Shown: positions 54,387 through 63,043 of the stretch, piece after piece
Position numbering within the stretch: position 1 is the stretch's first letter
Layout of the letters: every line of letters begins with the position of its first letter
NCBI GenBank assembly: GCA_903823865.1
Contig: CAIJUJ010000021.1
Span: 6,732 to 70,731, forward strand
DNA: 64,000 nt
Direction of reading: 5' to 3'
From: an uncultured bacterium
Lineage (GTDB): Bacteria; Patescibacteriota; Minisyncoccia; Phycocordibacterales; GWA1-40-21
Made by a program: the position numbers and the translations under genes
The notes under the pieces: model-generated
Seen by the model: only the letters and a program-made list of their open reading frames with translations
Database searches by the model: none
What the model was told of the DNA's origin: nothing

Positions 54387-55262
54387 TTAATTCAAGCTTT
54401 TCTCCGCATCAATAAATTCATTGAGCTCACCATTAAGTACTTTGTCAATATTATTTGTTTCAATATTTGTTCTATGATCCTTAATCATTTTGTATGGATG
54501 AAAAACATAGGAACGAATCTGACTCCCCCATTCTATAGACATCGTTTTACTAATATGCAAACCTGCATGTCTGGTTATATTTTCTTCTTCTTTTAATTTA
54601 AATAATTTACCTTTGAGAATTTGAACTGCTTTTTCTTTGTTTTGTAACTGCGACCTCTCTGAGGCACCGCGAACAGATATTCCTGTGGGGATATGAGTAA
54701 TTCTCACTGCAGTCTCGCGTTTATTTACATTCTGTCCTCCTGGACCACCAGCTTTTGATGTTTCAATTTTTAAATCACTTTCTGGTATTTCAATATCTCC
54801 ATCTTTTTCTATTTTTGGTACTACTTCTACTAAAGAAAAAGAAGTTTGCCTCAAATTTTTTGAATTAAACGGAGAAAGTCTTACAAGACGATGAACTCCA
54901 GATTCGTGCTTTAATAATCCATATGCGTTTGGGCCTAAAATTTCAAGAGTAATATTTCGGTAGCCGCCATGGTCATTCTCTGTTTCGTCTAATATTTTAT
55001 AATCCCAATTATTTTTAATAAAATATTTTGAATACATTTCAAACAATATCCTAGAAAAATCTTCCGCATCATCTCCACCCGCACCAGAAAAAATTGTCAT
55101 TATGGCATGTCCTTTATTATATTTATCTTTACCAAGAATTTCAGATTTTAGAAAATTAAGCTCTTTCAATATTGCTTGTGCCTTATTTTTGTCAGCCCAA
55201 AAATCCGGAGCCTGCATCTCTTTTTCTAACTCTTGAATTTTTTTATTTATTTCCTCTTTCAT
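54387..55262 (-). CDS. prfB: peptide chain release factor 2, short form without N-terminal frameshift segment
   Basis: 'SPF' tripeptide, 'GGQNVNK' GGQ motif; 291 aa; ATG 2 nt from the tRNA-Thr 3' end. Confidence 0.85.
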
Positions 55263-55263
55263 G

Positions 55264-55336
55264 AGCCACCTCCCAGGATCGAACTGGGGACCCCGTCTTT
55301 ACGAAAGACGTGCTCTACCAACTGAGCTAAGGTGGC
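55264..55336 (-). tRNA. tRNA-Thr (CGT)
   Basis: Acceptor GCCACCU/AGGUGGC, anticodon loop UUCGUAA, U73. Confidence 0.85.
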
Positions 55337-55348
55337 ACCTCCCAGCAG

Positions 55349-55421
55349 AGCCATTGACCAGGATCGAACTGGTGACCTCGTCATTACCAATGACGTGCTC
55401 TACCGACTGAGCTACAATGGC
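55349..55421 (-). tRNA. tRNA-Thr (GGT)
   Basis: Acceptor GCCAUUG/CAAUGGC, anticodon loop UUGGUAA, U73. Confidence 0.85.
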
Positions 55422-56934: not shown

Positions 56935-57117
56935 GCTGGCCGGAGTTTCTCCCTCGACTAAAGCCTCGTCTTCACTCGGCTTTGTCTGGGCACCAGCTCA
57001 TTCACCTCGCAAGCTTGCGAGGTATCATTCCGCTGTTCGAATCCGGACGCAAGCAAAGCAGTTTGCTTGCTCCAGCCGCGCAAATAAAAATAACCACTTT
57101 CGTGGTATTTTTATTTG
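56902..57117 (-). mobile_element. tRNA-3'-linked miniature element, family I (Asp copy), with an extra partial tandem duplication of its distal end
   Basis: 'gctggccgga' at 56904-56913 and 56935-56944 duplicates the tRNA 3' end at 57122-57131; hairpin GCAAGCAAA-GCAG-TTTGCTTGC at 57049-57070; 'gttcgaatccggac' inverted T-arm copy; body 'tcattcaccYcgcaagcttgcgRggtatcattccgctgttc' shared with the Phe copy. Confidence 0.5.
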
Positions 57118-57191
57118 CGCGGCTGGCCGGATTCGAACCGGTGACCTCTCCCGTGACAGGGGAGCGCTCTAACCAACTGAGCTACAACCGC
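57118..57191 (-). tRNA. tRNA-Asp (GTC)
   Basis: Acceptor GCGGUUG/CAGCCGC, anticodon loop CUGUCAC, G73. Confidence 0.85.
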
Positions 57192-57242
57192 ATTTATTGA
57201 CAAACAAAACAATAACAGAAAAATGTTGTTTCTACAATATTT

Positions 57243-57395
57243 TTCTTGTGTCGACGGGTGGAATCTGCTACTACATAGCCAGGTATTTTTCCACCTCGCT
57301 TCGCTCATACGGAAAAATCTTTCAATTCCGCCACGGAGTGAAGCAGTTCACTCCTCTCGCACTCGAATAAAAATGAATATTCATTTTTATTCTTG
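57243..57395 (-). mobile_element. tRNA-3'-linked miniature element, family I (Met copy)
   Basis: 23-nt 'ttcttgtgtcgacgggtggaatc' at 57243-57265 duplicates 57390-57412; hairpin GAGTGAA-GCAG-TTCACTC at 57336-57353 with compensatory stem changes; body homologous to the Gly copy. Confidence 0.55.
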
Positions 57396-57469
57396 TGTCG
57401 ACGGGTGGAATCGAACCACCGACCTTAGCTTTATGAGTGCTATGCTCTAGCCAACTGAGCTACGTCGAC
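57396..57469 (-). tRNA. tRNA-Met (CAT), elongator-type (or tRNA-Ile2/LAU)
   Basis: Acceptor GUCGACG/CGUCGAC, anticodon loop CUCAUAA, G1-C72 paired, A73. Confidence 0.75.
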
Positions 57470-57520
57470 ATATAAAAACCAAAATTAATATAACATTTTT
57501 TCGCCTAAAAACAAATGAAA

Positions 57521-57895
57521 CTACTTGTTTAGATAGTGTTTTAATTGTTTATTTAAATATTTTCTTCCAGAACCACCTTTTAGAAATTTCTCTCTACCAA
57601 CCGCATCATCTATATTCAAATATGCTTCATAATAAACAAGTTTCCAGTTGGTTTTATCTTTTGTAGTTCTACACCCCTTTCCTCTTAGATGGTCAGTGAT
57701 TCTTTGTTTTAGATTTGATGAATATCCAATATAAAAACTCTTATCTTCATTTTGTAAAACATATGTATAATACATTTGGTCATTATCACTTTTATACAAA
57801 AATAAATCAAATTTTTGGCCTGCCACGAGACAAAAACTACCTTGGCCGCGCAAAATAAATTGATTACAATTTATCGCCCGGCTCACGAAAAACAA
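57521..57895 (-). CDS. GIY-YIG nuclease-family protein (UPF0213/YhbQ-like; start probably the Met at ~57772)
   Basis: 'YYTYVLQNEDKSFYIGYSSNLKQRITDH...W.LVYYE' GIY-YIG core. Confidence 0.6.
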   Translation of the reverse strand: MFFVSRAINCNQFILRGQGSFCLVAGQKFDLFLYKSDNDQMYYTYVLQNEDKSFYIGYSSNLKQRITDHLRGKGCRTTKDKTNWKLVYYEAYLNIDDAVGREKFLKGGSGRKYLNKQLKHYLNK

Positions 57896-57898
57896 AAA

Positions 57899-57930
57899 CT
57901 ACCGATAAAATCAGTAGTTTTTGTTTTTCG
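57899..57930. terminator. terminator hairpin
   Basis: aaaaactac-cgataaaatca-gtagttttt. Confidence 0.65.
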
Positions 57931-58004
57931 TGGTTGCGGGGGCCCGAATTGCACGGACGTCTCCAGGTTATGAGCCTGGCGAATTACTGCTACTCTACCC
58001 CGCT
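57931..58004 (-). tRNA. tRNA-Met (CAT), initiator-like, with genomically encoded CCA
   Basis: A1xA72 mismatch; D GAGU/AUUC; anticodon stem CCAGG/CCUGG with loop CUCAUAA; T GUCCG-UGCAAUU-CGGGC; 3' A-CCA encoded; promoter-like TTGAAC..TAAATT upstream. Confidence 0.55.
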
Positions 58005-58085
58005 GTAATTTACATTACAACATAAAAGTTCAAAAAGCAAACAGTTAATAAATAACCAACATAGTAAACAAATAACTAATTTGAA

Positions 58086-58814
58086 CTATATTATTTCAAA
58101 CTCTTCAAAAACTGACTCGTACAATTTAATAACCCTTTTTGCCTCTCTTTGTGTTAGGAGAAATTCTGATCCTTGGTGAGCAATAGCATTTCTAATTTTA
58201 TGTGCTTCCCACGCCTGCTCTAAATGATTAAAATCACTAGGCTCAATCTTTTTTAATTTATCACCTATACTTTCACCATGTAATTGTAAACTTTCCAAAA
58301 GATCATTCAAAATAATATCTGCCTCTAGTATCGCAAGTCTCCACTTACTTGCATCATCGGAATTAATATGTGACTCAACTAATTTCCACTTAGGATTTTC
58401 TATAACAGCGTCTTCTAAATGAATCTTTACTTGTTCACCTTTTGGTAAGACTCTTTCCATAATTTTTTTTCTTATTTTATTTTCTCGAATTATATAAATG
58501 ATAACTAAAATAAAAAGAAAAAAACACAAAAAAACAGAGAAAATAACGAATCTAGCATAAAAATTAATAATGGCAAAAATAATCTTATCAAAAACTGGTT
58601 TCCAACTATCAATATTTTTTGTTACCCAATTATAGGCAATTGTCGCCATACCAACAAGCAAGGATAAAATTACTATAATTTCGAAGGCGGCTAGTGAAAG
58701 GCCTGATTTAATTTCTTTTTTTTCTGCCATATAGATATTATACCATTTTTTATAATTCTCCCAAGAAGTTTTTACCAACAAAAAATAGCTTATCTTCCCT
58801 GCTGTAATCAGCAA
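58086..58814 (-). CDS. membrane-anchored protein with C-terminal HepT-like HEPN domain (start probably the Met at ~58730)
   Basis: Two TM helices; C-terminal 'W..AHKIRNAIAHQG' matches HepT/DUF86 'W..I.g.RN.laH.Y' (Rx4H). Confidence 0.45.
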   Translation of the reverse strand: MLITAGKISYFLLVKTSWENYKKWYNIYMAEKKEIKSGLSLAAFEIIVILSLLVGMATIAYNWVTKNIDSWKPVFDKIIFAIINFYARFVIFSVFLCFFLFILVIIYIIRENKIRKKIMERVLPKGEQVKIHLEDAVIENPKWKLVESHINSDDASKWRLAILEADIILNDLLESLQLHGESIGDKLKKIEPSDFNHLEQAWEAHKIRNAIAHQGSEFLLTQREAKRVIKLYESVFEEFEII

Positions 58815-60246
58815 TAAATTGAATTCCTATTGGTAAGTCTTTTCCATCAATTTTTTTCGTTCCAGATGGAATTGAGATTGCAGGAACCCCAGCCAAGTTT
58901 ATAGGCACGGTAAAAATATCTTCAAGATACATCTGTAATGGATCATCAATTTTCTCACCAATTTTAAATGCAATTCCTGGTGTTGTTGGCGTAGCAATAA
59001 TATCAACCTTTTTAAATGCTTTTTTGTAATCTTCTTTAATTATTTCACGAACAATATTTGCTTTATTGTAATATGCATCATAATAACCAGAAGATAGAAC
59101 ATAGGTGCCAAGAATAATTCTTCTCTTAACTTCCCTACCAAGTCCAGCCTGTCTTGAAAGAAAATAGTCTTCAATTCCTGTAGCACCACTTACTCTTTTT
59201 CCATAACGCATTCCGTCATATCGTGCCATGTTTGAAGAAACTTCTGCTGGAACGATGACGTAATAAACAGCCAAAGAATATTTTAAATTTGGTAATTCAA
59301 TATCAACGATCTCATGACCGAGTTTTTTTAATTTACTTAATGAATCTTCAAAATTTTGAATTATATCTTTATCAATTCCACCAATCTTAAGAAAATCTCT
59401 TGGTACTCCAATTTTTAATTTATTAATTGATAGCTTTTCATCTTTTTTATCTGGAATGGTCGTGCTATCCATTCTATCTTGCCCTTTTATCACATTAAAA
59501 AGTATTTCTGCGTCTTCAACAGTTTTTCCAAACGGACCAATCTGATCAAGTGAAGAACCCATAGCCATTACACCATATCTTGAAACAGCCCCATAAGTTG
59601 GTTTCAAACCGACAATGCCACAAAAGCTTGCTGGCTGCCTAATAGAGCCACCAGTGTCAGAACCAAGCGCTACAAGAGCCATATTCCCAGCCACGGAAGC
59701 CGCAGAACCTCCAGAAGAACCCCCCGGGACTCTTTCTAAATCGTGTGGATTTTTTGTTGGTCCGTAAGCCGAATTTTCGGTTGAGCCCCCCATTGCAAAC
59801 TCATCCATATTTGTTTTTCCAAGAAAAACCACACCCTCTTTTTTGAGTTTTTCTATGACCGTTGCATCATAAGTTGCGACATAATTCTCTAAAATTTTTG
59901 ATGCTGAAGTTGCAATTTTGTCTTTTATTAAAATATTATCTTTAACAGCAATCGGGATTCCGGTAAGCATTCCAGCTTTCCCACTTTTTATTATTTCATC
60001 TGCTTTTTTTGCTTGTGGAATCACATCATTAAAAACAGAAAGATATGCGTGGATATCTTTATCGGATTTTTTAATCTGCTCTAAATATGCAGTTGCCAAT
60101 TCAACAGATGTGTACTCGCCTGTTACGAGTGAATCATGAGCTTTTTTTATTGTTAAATTTTTTAAATCAATAACCATATTATTTTTTTTCAACAAATCTT
60201 CCGTCATTAAGTTTTTCACATTCATTCCATTTATAAATTCTGCCAT
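58750..60246 (-). CDS. gatA: Glu-tRNA(Gln)/Asp-tRNA(Asn) amidotransferase subunit A (start probably the Met at ~60177)
   Basis: Amidase signature 'GGSSGGSAA', Ser-cisSer-Lys triad region. Confidence 0.9.
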   Translation of the reverse strand: MAEFINGMNVKNLMTEDLLKKNNMVIDLKNLTIKKAHDSLVTGEYTSVELATAYLEQIKKSDKDIHAYLSVFNDVIPQAKKADEIIKSGKAGMLTGIPIAVKDNILIKDKIATSASKILENYVATYDATVIEKLKKEGVVFLGKTNMDEFAMGGSTENSAYGPTKNPHDLERVPGGSSGGSAASVAGNMALVALGSDTGGSIRQPASFCGIVGLKPTYGAVSRYGVMAMGSSLDQIGPFGKTVEDAEILFNVIKGQDRMDSTTIPDKKDEKLSINKLKIGVPRDFLKIGGIDKDIIQNFEDSLSKLKKLGHEIVDIELPNLKYSLAVYYVIVPAEVSSNMARYDGMRYGKRVSGATGIEDYFLSRQAGLGREVKRRIILGTYVLSSGYYDAYYNKANIVREIIKEDYKKAFKKVDIIATPTTPGIAFKIGEKIDDPLQMYLEDIFTVPINLAGVPAISIPSGTKKIDGKDLPIGIQFIADYSREDKLFFVGKNFLGEL

Positions 60247-60670
60247 TCATAGCAATATAAACACCGTCTTCCAATAAATTTAAAGCTCCAATTGCAACAC
60301 CAATATTAAATTCCGCATCTGATTCTCTAAATTTGTATGGCTGAGAAGCACCGGTCAAAACAATTGCTTTGCCTTTTATGCTACTCAAAACTTTTGCTGT
60401 TTTTACCATTGTGTCTGTACCATGAGTTATTAATATTTTATTTTCAACAACACTTTTGCAAGATTTTTTTATAATTTGTCTATCGGCATTTGTCATATTT
60501 AAACTATCTTTTGCCAATAAACTTTCAACATCATAATCAAAATTTAATTTTATTTTTCCCCCAGCCATTTCCATAACGGCCTGCTTTCCAAAGGAAAAAT
60601 TCAATGTTCCCTTAACTTCTGAATACTCCTTATCTATAGTTCCCCCTACAGTAAAAATTTTTATTTTCAT
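60179..60670 (-). CDS. L-asparaginase/glutaminase N-terminal-domain-like protein inserted between gatC and gatA
   Basis: 'FTVGGTID' and 'ITHGTDTM' asparaginase motifs; 163 aa (N-domain only). Confidence 0.6.
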   Translation of the reverse strand: MKIKIFTVGGTIDKEYSEVKGTLNFSFGKQAVMEMAGGKIKLNFDYDVESLLAKDSLNMTNADRQIIKKSCKSVVENKILITHGTDTMVKTAKVLSSIKGKAIVLTGASQPYKFRESDAEFNIGVAIGALNLLEDGVYIAMNGRIYKWNECEKLNDGRFVEKK

Positions 60671-60681
60671 AATTTTTATTA

Positions 60682-60966
60682 TTATAATATTTTTTCAACT
60701 TTCAAATAATTATCTTGAGAATTTGGCATACCTGCAACAATATTTTTTGTGTTTGCTCCAGTTTCGTTTTGGTTTTCATCATTTCTTACAACGTTTCGTA
60801 ATTCACCAGCTTTTTTTTCTTCACCAATCTTAGAAACAATCTCTTTTAATTGGGTTACATAATCCAAAATTGGGTCTACTTCTTTAAGCAGTCTTTGCAT
60901 TTCCTCTCTAGTGAGTTCTATTCTTGCTAGTTTGGCTAATTTCTCTATATCTTTAATCTCTAACAT
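60682..60966 (-). CDS. gatC: amidotransferase subunit C
   Basis: 94 aa; 'LAKLARIELTREE' GatC N-terminus; position upstream of gatA. Confidence 0.8.
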   Translation of the reverse strand: MLEIKDIEKLAKLARIELTREEMQRLLKEVDPILDYVTQLKEIVSKIGEEKKAGELRNVVRNDENQNETGANTKNIVAGMPNSQDNYLKVEKIL

Positions 60967-61005
60967 AGAAATAATATAGCATTTTAGACGGCAAAAAGAA
61001 AATAA

Positions 61006-61413
61006 TTAAACCAATTGAACTTTGTCACCGTTTAAAGTAAACAACTCAGTTTCGATAGACAAATTTGGAAACTTTTTGAAAATAGTTAATTTTGCTTTTT
61101 TTAATTCTTCCTCATGAAATTCAATTTCTTGGTTCTGTGACTTAAATTTTTTGCTGCCACCATAAGCCCTACAATCTGTATGGTTTGTTAGAATTAATTT
61201 GTGTGGATGGTGTAATTTTATCGATAACCCGATGTTTTCTAATAAAGTAATTCTGTCCTCTTCTTCAAGTGGTGAGGTAATATTTTTACTAGAACCAGCA
61301 ATTTCAATCAAATCAAAATCACCATATTTTTCTTTTAAAATAGGTAGTGCTTGGGGCCAAAAACGATAATCAATACATAATAATACTAAAGATAAATTCT
61401 TGATTTGGTTCAT
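61006..61413 (-). CDS. short beta-carbonic-anhydrase-like protein
   Basis: 'CIDYRF' (CxDxR) and 'HTDCRAYGG' (HxxC) zinc-ligand motifs; only 135 aa. Confidence 0.4.
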   Translation of the reverse strand: MNQIKNLSLVLLCIDYRFWPQALPILKEKYGDFDLIEIAGSSKNITSPLEEEDRITLLENIGLSIKLHHPHKLILTNHTDCRAYGGSKKFKSQNQEIEFHEEELKKAKLTIFKKFPNLSIETELFTLNGDKVQLV

Positions 61414-61419
61414 TGTAAG

Positions 61420-62472
61420 TTATGGATGGAAAAAGAAAGCCACAGCGATAATAATATATGCCATTACAAGCTGAACCCCCTCAAACCAATTGCACTCACC
61501 ATCCTCAATGATTGCATTAACAATAAATACTGAAAAAATAATTGCGACAAGTTCAAAGGTATTAAAAACCAAACTCATATTGGTTGGGAAAAACAAACTA
61601 ATCAAAACAAGAGCGGGAGCAACAAACATAGCAATCTGGGTTGTGGAACCAATTGAAACTTGAAGTGCAAGATCCATTTTCCCCTTTATGGCCATTGTTA
61701 TCGCCGAGGTGTGTTCTGCGGCATTACCAATAATTGCGACAAAAATGACACCGATAAATAACTCTGTCCAGCCAAAACTTGCGACTAACGGCTCAATTGA
61801 GCCAACTAAGATTTCGCTCATAAACGCAACGGCAACAGTCGATATTAAAAGTATTATTATACTTTTTTTAATACTCCATTTTGCTTCATACTTCCCAACA
61901 TCTTCTGTGTACAAATGTTTATGCGTAAAAAGTGAGAATACCAAACTTGCCAAATAAGAAATAATCATGATGACAGCAATCAAGATACTTAGTTTTTCTA
62001 TAACTCCACCAGTTGCCGAAATTTTAGAAGTCTGAAAAAATATCGCTGGAATCACAAGTGCAATAACAGCCAAAAGTAATGTAGATGCACTGGCTTTTGC
62101 TGCCGTGCCATTAAATGTTTGTTTTGGTCTTTTTACTCCACCAAAAAAGATAGCTGTGCCCAAAACCAAAAGAAGATTTCCTAAAATAGAACCTGTAAGT
62201 GATGCTTTTACAACTTCCGTAAGGCCAGCCTGTAAAGCAAAAATACCGATGATTAACTCTGTCGCGTTACCGAAGGTGGCATTTAGAAAACCGCCCAAAG
62301 CTGGGCCGGTATAAACAGTCAATTCTTCCGTAGCCTCGCCAATATATTTTGCGAGTGGTATAATTGATATTGCGGATAAAATAAATACAAAAATTGCGGG
62401 TAAATTTAATAGGTGCGCGATAATTGTTATTGGTATAAATATTAAAAGAACATTAAAAAATTTATTTAGCAT
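61420..62472 (-). CDS. Ca2+/H+ (CaCA family) antiporter
   Basis: Alpha-repeat motifs 'GNATELII' and 'GNAAEHTSA'; ~10 TM helices. Confidence 0.85.
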   Translation of the reverse strand: MLNKFFNVLLIFIPITIIAHLLNLPAIFVFILSAISIIPLAKYIGEATEELTVYTGPALGGFLNATFGNATELIIGIFALQAGLTEVVKASLTGSILGNLLLVLGTAIFFGGVKRPKQTFNGTAAKASASTLLLAVIALVIPAIFFQTSKISATGGVIEKLSILIAVIMIISYLASLVFSLFTHKHLYTEDVGKYEAKWSIKKSIIILLISTVAVAFMSEILVGSIEPLVASFGWTELFIGVIFVAIIGNAAEHTSAITMAIKGKMDLALQVSIGSTTQIAMFVAPALVLISLFFPTNMSLVFNTFELVAIIFSVFIVNAIIEDGECNWFEGVQLVMAYIIIAVAFFFHP

Positions 62473-62583
62473 ATATAATTTTATTTGTTAATAATAAGTA
62501 AAATTATATCATAGCCAATATTTTAGACTAGACCCAATGTATTATATAAAACCGCAATAATTATAAATAATTAATAAAACACC

Positions 62584-62871
62584 ATGGAAATAAAGAAAAT
62601 TTATGCCTCAAAATATGGCCAGACTGTGCACACAATGAAACCCCAATATGAGGTAAGGGGTGATGCCGTTTATAGGACTATTTATCACCCGCTCGGTGGT
62701 AATGCAGCATTGCCAGATTTTAAAATAAGAGGTGATAAAATGTATACGACAGCCCACCACGAGGCAGGAGCTCAACCAAATGCTTGGTATACTATTAAGG
62801 ACGGTGCAATACATAATACTGGTTATCATCCTGAGGGAGTAAAAGCAAGGGCATCATTTCACCTAAGGTAA
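62584..62871 (+). CDS. small protein with three ~25-aa repeats ('RGDxxYxTxxHxxG'), locally GC-rich
   Basis: Repeats 'VRGDAVYRTIYHPLGG / IRGDKMYTTAHHEAG / IKDGAIHNTGYHPEG'; own terminator. Confidence 0.4.
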   Translation: MEIKKIYASKYGQTVHTMKPQYEVRGDAVYRTIYHPLGGNAALPDFKIRGDKMYTTAHHEAGAQPNAWYTIKDGAIHNTGYHPEGVKARASFHLR

Positions 62872-62875
62872 ATAA

Positions 62876-62903
62876 TAAATGGCGGCTTAAGGCCGCCTTT
62901 TAT
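62876..62903 (+). terminator. rho-independent terminator
   Basis: ggcggc-ttaa-ggccgcc + ttttatt. Confidence 0.75.
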
Positions 62904-63043
62904 TATTTAATGATTTTTATAAAATCACTTTCATTTAATATTTTTACTCCAAGTTTTTCTGTTTCGCACCAAGCTAATTCGCTTTCCATCTTAAGGGAGC
63001 GGGCTTGGTGCATGGACTCCGCTACAATGTGATTGTAATTATT

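Follow-up and report, generated by a model that had tools for sequence, protein, structure and literature searches.

Gene organization at the gatC-gatA locus

Three genes lie head-to-tail on the minus strand, in the order gatC, a 163-aa ORF and gatA, in the window, that is, the whole stretch of 64,000 nucleotides that was analysed. The gatC gene (60682..60966, minus strand) encodes amidotransferase subunit C (94 aa) and matches PF02686 as well as TIGR00135, the latter at 54.6 bits (cut-off 47.1). The ORF that follows (60179..60670, minus strand) encodes a short-chain L-asparaginase (scASNase) resembling RrA, with 86 bits against PF00710 and 100 bits against RrA chains in the PDB. The gatA gene (58750..60177, minus strand) encodes amidotransferase subunit A (475 aa) and scores 598 bits against TIGR00132 (cut-off 481). 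All three genes are where the initial annotation had placed them, and the two motifs that it had recognised in the ORF, FTVGGTID and ITHGTDTM, are found at residues 6-13 and 81-88 of the translation.

Read from the sequence, the gap between the gatC stop and the start of the 163-aa ORF is 11 nt. The stop of this ORF (60181-60179) is separated from the gatA ATG by 1 nt, which leaves no space for a C-domain. The ATG at 60177 was taken as the gatA start (the mechanical ORF reaches 60246) because TIGR00132 matches the 475-aa version from residue 16 onwards and because the orthologue at a related locus, L085, is also 475 aa; that orthologue is called immediately past the asparaginase stop. The 11-nt and 1-nt spacing makes it probable that the 163-aa ORF shares a transcript with gatCA and is coupled to it in translation. 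A scan of positions 57400-63000 gave 29 promoter matches (24.4 expected in shuffled sequence) and five terminator matches (2.8 expected), both near expectation, and says nothing either way on an operon. In the same scan there was no terminator-like site at the gatC-asparaginase or the asparaginase-gatA junction, and the three genes themselves contain a single such site, a weak one within the gatA coding sequence (59320-59307).

Both flanking genes reach equivalog scores for their GatCAB subunits, and the amidase-signature motifs of GatA are intact. GatA scores 485 bits against Aquifex aeolicus GatA (3h0l) and in the alignment is identical to it over IAVKDNIL, VPGGSSGGSAASVA and LGSDTGGSIRQPASFCG. 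A full GatA equivalog with its amidase-signature motifs as in solved GatA suggests that an extra amide donor is unneeded. The earlier statement that gatB lies outside the window agrees with our scan, in which no GatB- or GatE-type domain was detected among the window ORFs covered (most of those of at least 290 aa). HisRS is the only synthetase found in the window.

Family and predicted catalysis of the 163-residue protein

The match of PF00710 (Asparaginase, N-terminal) to the 163-aa ORF is well above chance level (E 2.7e-24, against a cut-off of 22.5 bits) and covers profile positions 1-163 of 193. The top solved relatives are eight RrA sequences (97-100 bits, E about 1e-27), while the best long asparaginase, 1wls, reaches 48 bits; in a family-profile search the corresponding scores are 118.7 bits for RrA and 55.5 bits for a long asparaginase. 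The 172-aa RrA of Rhodospirillum rubrum (PDB 8UOO/8UOU) is the prototype of the scASNase family, whose members are 160-185 aa in length (Zhang et al. 2024, PMC10949315). The homologues of our ORF match this published range, with lengths of 147-170 aa among the 86 that were aligned and mostly 158-175 aa among those listed of 5341 matches. The ORF and RrA each consist of one asparaginase N-domain (about 160-170 aa), lack a signal peptide and are about 40% identical. In protomer size, in consisting of the N-domain only and in being nearer to RrA than to the long class 1 asparaginases, the ORF belongs, as an intact gene, to the known RrA-type scASNase family. It differs from RrA in its host, a Patescibacteria-like bacterium from a phylum absent in the survey of PMC10949315, and in its gene setting between gatC and gatA; the tetramer and the activity are known for RrA and predicted for our ORF.

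The type I cytoplasmic L-asparaginases (AnsA/TIGR00519, for example Pyrococcus horikoshii 1WLS) have the N-domain fold and catalytic residues in common with the ORF and rank next after RrA as its matches in sequence (48-55 bits) and in fold (TM about 0.79 for the N-domain). They are, however, two-domain proteins of about 330 aa, whereas the ORF is the N-domain alone, and their dimer architecture is unlike that of RrA (PMC10949315). Identity as a two-domain type I enzyme was rejected, as TIGR00519 scores 60.3 bits (cut-off 260.5) and is matched only at profile positions 3-151 of 337. A domain fusion in two longer homologues (212-213 aa) was likewise rejected; their N-terminal extra 50 residues hold no GatC or other domain and resemble read-through from a miscalled start.

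The AlphaFold2 model of the ORF (pLDDT 77.6, pTM 0.79) has the fold of the RrA protomer, with low confidence at residues 11-26, the active-site loop. The best 25 Foldseek matches in the PDB are all RrA chains (TM 0.77-0.82, 38-42% identity, E down to 2e-14), and the match to RrA 8uor/8uoo has a TM of 0.81. The RrA catalytic residues T16, K19, Y21, D57, S58, T87, D88 and K158 correspond to T11, K14, Y16, D55, S56, T85, D86 and K153 of the ORF, so that both the family-specific lysine (Lys19 in RrA) and the C-terminal catalytic lysine are present. Across the 86 homologues, which come from many phyla, each of these columns is fully conserved apart from T85, found in 85. Asn26 of RrA, an active-site residue acting in trans, aligns to Gly21 of the ORF, in a column that holds G or S in 80 of the 86 homologues. 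Asn24 of the ORF is invariant among close homologues and sits in the poorly modelled loop; it may stand in for Asn26 of RrA.

RrA is an almost pure asparaginase with a glutaminase turnover at least 1000-fold lower, forms self-contained homotetramers and has a millimolar Km (3.6 mM). By homology, the product of the 163-aa ORF would be a cytoplasmic RrA-family short-chain L-asparaginase and would likewise assemble as a homotetramer. Thr11 would attack the side-chain amide of free L-Asn, with proton transfer helped by Tyr16 and by the family-specific Lys14 contributed from the neighbouring protomer, while Asp55 and Ser56 would hold the alpha-amino and alpha-carboxylate groups of the substrate. 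The Thr85-Asp86-Lys153 triad would then finish the hydrolysis to L-Asp and ammonia. Such an enzyme would work without a C-terminal domain and without a partner protein, and its physiological role would be the salvage of Asn to Asp and NH3.

Gene order and selection in relatives

With the asparaginase ORF denoted ANS, the order gatC-ANS-gatA is confined to the closest relatives, in which GatA is at least 81% identical. These are L005 (ANS 94% and GatA 92% identical), L085 (89% and 85%) and L088/L089 (85% and 81%), and in L005, L085 and L088 the gene just upstream of the asparaginase is an orthologue of gatC. Among 80 metagenome loci with a GatA 47-78% identical to ours, none has the asparaginase ORF within 3 kb of gatA. 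The conservation of this gene order, which the initial annotation had named as a point to check, is real among the nearest relatives and absent from all 80 of the more distant GatA loci. In nearly all of these loci where tblastn located gatC it abuts gatA, for example in L093 (78%). Loci L094 and L095 retain ligA-gatC-gatA-TM242, and the window and L005 bear two extra insertions. The placement of the asparaginase gene between gatC and gatA is ascribed to a recent, lineage-specific insertion. An alignment of the insertion junctions revealed no duplication and no mobile-element scar, and an 'empty' ancestral site, sought in the window by way of the relatives' rplI, rpmA, S1, RNase HII, deaminase and SelR genes, was not found, none of these genes being present there. 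In the literature on asparaginase with GatCAB, and on CPR with AsnRS, we found no description of a gatC-asparaginase-gatA arrangement.

Elsewhere the scASNase gene occurs at about 80 other loci without a conserved neighbour, in settings such as S1-ANS-RNase HII, L9-ANS-deaminase or SelR, and RRM-ANS-ATP synthase. Clustering of the neighbours at about 84 scASNase loci gave no partner common to more than five of them. Where it occurs, the gatC-ANS-gatA arrangement is stable: three or more related lineages retain it, with its tight spacing, at a dS of about 0.8-1.0. Compared with L005, the asparaginase ORF has a dN/dS of 0.036, and compared with L085 one of 0.083; for GatA the value is 0.083 in both cases. 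Values of 0.04-0.08 indicate that the asparaginase gene is under purifying selection.

Relationship to the amidotransferase

The restriction of the gene order to one narrow Patescibacteria-like lineage suggests that the 163-aa protein most likely works on its own, as an ordinary enzyme, and is not a new amidotransferase subunit. We consider it very probable that the ORF encodes a stand-alone RrA-family scASNase with predicted activity, recently inserted between gatC and gatA and outside the amidotransferase. Its location would then be due to the gene having been inserted recently, within a single narrow Patescibacteria-like (CPR) lineage, and the asparaginase would not be a component of the enzyme encoded around it. 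One of the two proposals of the initial annotation, a stand-alone asparaginase co-transcribed with gatCA, fits this evidence, with co-transcription suggested by the 11-nt and 1-nt spacing.

The enzyme might instead be coupled to gatCA metabolically, without physical association, its conversion of Asn to ammonia and to Asp, on which the indirect pathway acts, making co-expression selectively favoured. This supposes a reduced genome in which Asn-tRNA(Asn) is made solely by a non-discriminating AspRS and GatCAB, so that imported Asn is not directly chargeable. The operon-like spacing is consistent with such coupling, as are the retention of the arrangement in L005, L085 and L088 at a dS of 0.8-1.0 and a purifying selection on the scASNase gene equal to or above that on GatA. 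Across many Patescibacteria MAGs, moreover, scASNase remains about 70-75% identical while GatA drops to 55-63%, and a further small-genome group is represented among the homologues by MAGs labelled Micrarchaeota. Yet beyond the nearest relatives scASNase never adjoins gatCAB, so any coupling would work without linkage, and the millimolar Km of RrA also argues against it. We regard metabolic coupling as improbable. There is a similarly slim chance that the unusually conserved scASNase serves the indirect Asn-tRNA pathway as a housekeeping partner, both here and perhaps in other small-genome organisms of the Patescibacteria and DPANN-like groups. Scavenged Asn, not chargeable where AsnRS is lacking, would in that case be turned into Asp for the non-discriminating AspRS and GatCAB, and the insertion would represent selected co-expression or even a loose complex.

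The other proposal of the initial annotation was an accessory subunit like archaeal GatD, docked on GatCAB and giving ammonia for tRNA-dependent transamidation. Archaeal GatD, the glutaminase subunit of GatDE and itself asparaginase-like, resembles the ORF in the fold of its class 1 asparaginase N-domain and in the Thr nucleophile motif, and a genomic association with tRNA-dependent amidotransferase genes is common to both; the position between gatC and gatA and the weak matches to the GatD HMMs also favour this reading. GatD, whose partner is GatE, has an N-terminal domain of its own as well as an asparaginase C-domain. The 163 or so residues of the ORF have room for neither of these domains, its neighbours are the bacterial gatC and gatA, and the window ORFs scanned include none with a GatE-type domain. 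The GatD HMM scores (41.6 bits for TIGR02153, cut-off 324; 41.7 bits for NF003217, cut-off 310) are far below threshold and below the 60 bits of the type I model and the 100-119 bits of RrA, long asparaginases reaching at most 55 bits in the sequence and profile searches. The GatD profiles, of 405-420 positions, are matched at positions 64-210 and 77-222 only, that is, over the asparaginase N-domain part, and the best 60 sequence matches in the PDB include no GatD chain, also when a profile is used. The nearest characterised relative, RrA, is an asparaginase, in contrast to the glutaminase GatD, with at least 1000-fold less glutaminase turnover and self-contained homotetramers. The conserved motifs of GatA are the same as in solved GatA, and the gene order is missing from all 80 of the more distant GatA loci. 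We therefore consider a GatD-like role very unlikely. The initial annotation had named, as findings that would count against it, absence or a different location of the ORF in all relatives and best homologues that are full-length type I asparaginases; of this pair, the first holds for every relative except the nearest, but the second does not hold, the best homologues being short-chain enzymes.

Least probable of all is that the ORF is a pseudogene, a truncated remnant of a full-length type I asparaginase: it does hold the N-terminal domain only (PF00710 profile positions 1-163 of 193), but this reading is refuted by a length of about 160 aa that is common to thousands of homologues, by the conservation of all its catalytic residues and by the dN/dS of 0.04-0.08, and the scASNases are a distinct clade of active enzymes not born of repeated truncation (PMC10949315).

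A bacterial GatD-like third, amide-donating subunit would, if true, alter a core pathway of translation in a notable way; our evidence gives it no support. With the 163-aa protein taken as a stand-alone scASNase, our results modestly widen the range of this family, whose description dates from 2024: it now takes in Patescibacteria-like bacteria as well as MAGs labelled Micrarchaeota, and its conservation there is strong. They also raise the question of why a low-affinity asparaginase is retained by organisms with minimal metabolism.

The locus and its amidotransferase genes

A 163-aa ORF with asparaginase motifs (60179-60670) lies between gatC (60682-60966, 94 aa) and gatA (58750-60177, 475 aa), all three on the minus strand, and every detail of this row in the initial annotation was confirmed. 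Both gat genes score above the cut-offs of their NCBIfam equivalog models (gatC, TIGR00135, 54.6 against 47.1; gatA, TIGR00132, 598 against 481). In the ORF, Pfam PF00710 (Asparaginase, N-terminal) is hit at 86 bits (E 2.7e-24), the alignment covering positions 1-163 of the 193 in the profile; FTVGGTID stands at residues 6-13 and ITHGTDTM at residues 81-88. The mechanical gatA ORF reaches 60246; the true start is the ATG at 60177, because in the 475-aa version the TIGR00132 match opens at residue 16 and the orthologue in a related locus, L085, was called at 475 aa, starting directly after the asparaginase stop. The spacers are 11 nt from the gatC stop to the ORF start and 1 nt from the ORF stop to the gatA start. 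The ORF is presumably co-transcribed with gatCA, a point on which a promoter and terminator scan of the locus was uninformative. As had also been noted, gatB is missing here, none being found among the window ORFs scanned, which comprised most of those of at least 290 aa.

GatA aligns with Aquifex aeolicus GatA (3h0l) at 485 bits, and IAVKDNIL, VPGGSSGGSAASVA and LGSDTGGSIRQPASFCG, which we take to carry the Lys, cis-Ser, Ser catalytic triad of amidase-signature enzymes, are identical in the two. Judged from its sequence, GatA should require no helper.

A short-chain asparaginase of the RrA family

The ORF adds a member to the known short-chain L-asparaginase (scASNase) family, that of the Rhodospirillum rubrum enzyme RrA described by Zhang et al. 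(PMC10949315). scASNases are cytoplasmic enzymes of 160-185 aa, found in about 7% of surveyed bacterial species, and their sequences cluster apart from type I and type II enzymes (PMC10949315). [quoted passage not shown]

The closest solved relatives of the ORF, at 97-100 bits (E about 1e-27), are eight sequences in PDB entries 8uoo to 8upc. The construct in these entries has 185 residues and the label 'Asparaginase', and it is the 'atypical asparaginase from Rhodospirillum rubrum'; the top long asparaginase, 1wls, reaches 48 bits. A profile built from close homologues gives RrA 118.7 bits against 55.5 bits for the top long enzyme, and the ORF scores 60.3 bits on the type I asparaginase model, where the cut-off is 260.5. 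The 25 top PDB fold matches of its AlphaFold2 model (pLDDT 77.6, pTM 0.79, with a low-confidence loop at residues 11-26) are all RrA chains (TM 0.77-0.82). In an alignment of RrA with 86 homologues from many phyla (147-170 aa), RrA T16, K19, Y21, D57, S58, T87, D88 and K158 correspond to ORF T11, K14, Y16, D55, S56, T85, D86 and K153, and these eight are kept in 85-86 of the 86. The one difference is RrA Asn26, which aligns to Gly21 in the ORF and is the sole RrA active-site residue without conservation. Compared with its orthologues in L005, the closest related locus, and in L085, the ORF has a dN/dS of 0.036 and 0.083, respectively; for GatA the value is 0.083 with either locus. Given the RrA match, the kept catalytic residues, the length, the fold and the dN/dS, the gene is intact and constrained and is no truncated remnant.

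The protein is predicted, by homology to RrA, to be an asparaginase and most likely a homotetramer. Thr11 would attack free L-Asn at its amide, proton transfer would be helped by Lys14 and Tyr16 of a partner protomer, Asp55 and Ser56 would hold the substrate, and the Thr85-Asp86-Lys153 triad would finish hydrolysis to L-Asp and NH3.

Gene order in relatives

We compared 80 genome loci in which the ORF has a relative, taking 5-kb flanks where the contig allowed. Direct same-strand gatC and gatA neighbours were present in only one, L005 (asparaginase 94%, GatA 92% identity); two more close relatives, L085 (89% and 85%) and L088/L089 (85% and 81%), also have the gatC-asparaginase-gatA order. At 75% identity or below the asparaginase occupies other sites (S1-asparaginase-RNase HII, L9-asparaginase-cytidine deaminase or SelR, RRM-asparaginase-ATP synthase), and when three genes on each side were clustered across about 84 loci, every neighbour was limited to five loci at most. 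Conversely, the ORF was lacking within 3 kb in all 80 metagenome loci whose GatA is 47-78% identical. In nearly all of those where tblastn located gatC it adjoins gatA directly, including the closest, L093 (78%). Two loci, L094 and L095, read ligA-gatC-gatA-TM242, by synteny an older arrangement; the window and L005 have it with two interruptions, a CaCA/ProCA2/orf95 block and the asparaginase gene. The gatC-asparaginase-gatA order is a recent, lineage-specific insertion and no conserved operon, and the position of the ORF is incidental. The ligA-gatC-gatA neighbourhood takes insertions repeatedly.

The ORF enzyme might instead be metabolically coupled to gatCA, salvaging Asn to Asp for a putative AsnRS-less indirect pathway. 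This is possible because the arrangement is stable in a small clade and the ORF is unusually conserved in Patescibacteria (about 70-75% identity against 55-63% for GatA), but the linkage is plainly not needed elsewhere, and we regard the coupling as unlikely. The accessory amide-donor subunit resembling GatD proposed at first is very improbable: the RrA-family match contradicts it, the ORF scores 41.6-41.7 bits on GatD equivalog models with cut-offs of 310-324, no GatD chain appears in the 60 best PDB matches to the homologue profile, and in the loci compared other than L005, L085 and L088/L089 the ORF is located elsewhere. That the ORF is a pseudogene is less credible still, given a dN/dS of 0.036-0.083 and the near-invariant catalytic residues.

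Neighbouring features and host lineage

The block inserted between ligA and gatC, both in L005 and in the window (61006-62871), comprises a Na/Ca exchanger (CaCA), a 'putative carbonic anhydrase' (Pro_CA_2) and, on the plus strand, a 95-aa ORF without family match; in L085 CaCA is present and tblastn found no Pro_CA_2. Downstream of gatA lies a 242-aa membrane ORF, for which no family scored above cut-off. Its TTG start is at 58814, so it shares 65 nt (58750-58814) with the 3' end of gatA, an overlap that an internal ATG near 58730 (MAEKKEIK...) would abolish. This ORF is followed at 57117-58004 (minus strand) by tRNA-Met, a GIY-YIG gene (57521-57895), a second tRNA-Met and tRNA-Asp. The RF2-like gene prfB (54387-55262, minus strand) is only 291 aa and scores 357 bits on TIGR00020, just below the 370 cut-off. 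Its residues 44-286 align to profile positions 109-350 of 353, so about 100 N-terminal residues (domain 1) appear to be missing, and two tRNA-Thr genes (55263-55336 and 55348-55421) abut its 5' end, leaving no space for an upstream frameshifted segment.

The commonest neighbourhood found, recurrent in Patescibacteria (L004, L011, L015, L016, L017) yet lineage-restricted, is scASNase, a small membrane ORF and the ATP synthase operon; RF1 and an RRM protein precede scASNase in L004, L015 and L017. Homologues at 46-60% identity also occur in MAGs labelled Candidatus Micrarchaeota (L018, L020, L034, L074), DPANN archaea, a group outside the bacterial survey of the RrA paper (PMC10949315), although a binning error is possible. 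Directly upstream of scASNase in L020, on the opposite strand, is a fragment (94-447) of the amidase-signature type, GatA-like at 33% identity.

Close homologues of the ORF with an organism label are mostly from Patescibacteria, Nomurabacteria or Paceibacterota, and Patescibacteria are absent from the taxa listed in that survey (PMC10949315). We found no paper describing an scASNase within gatCA. The host lineage and the operon position are the only additions to the scASNase family.
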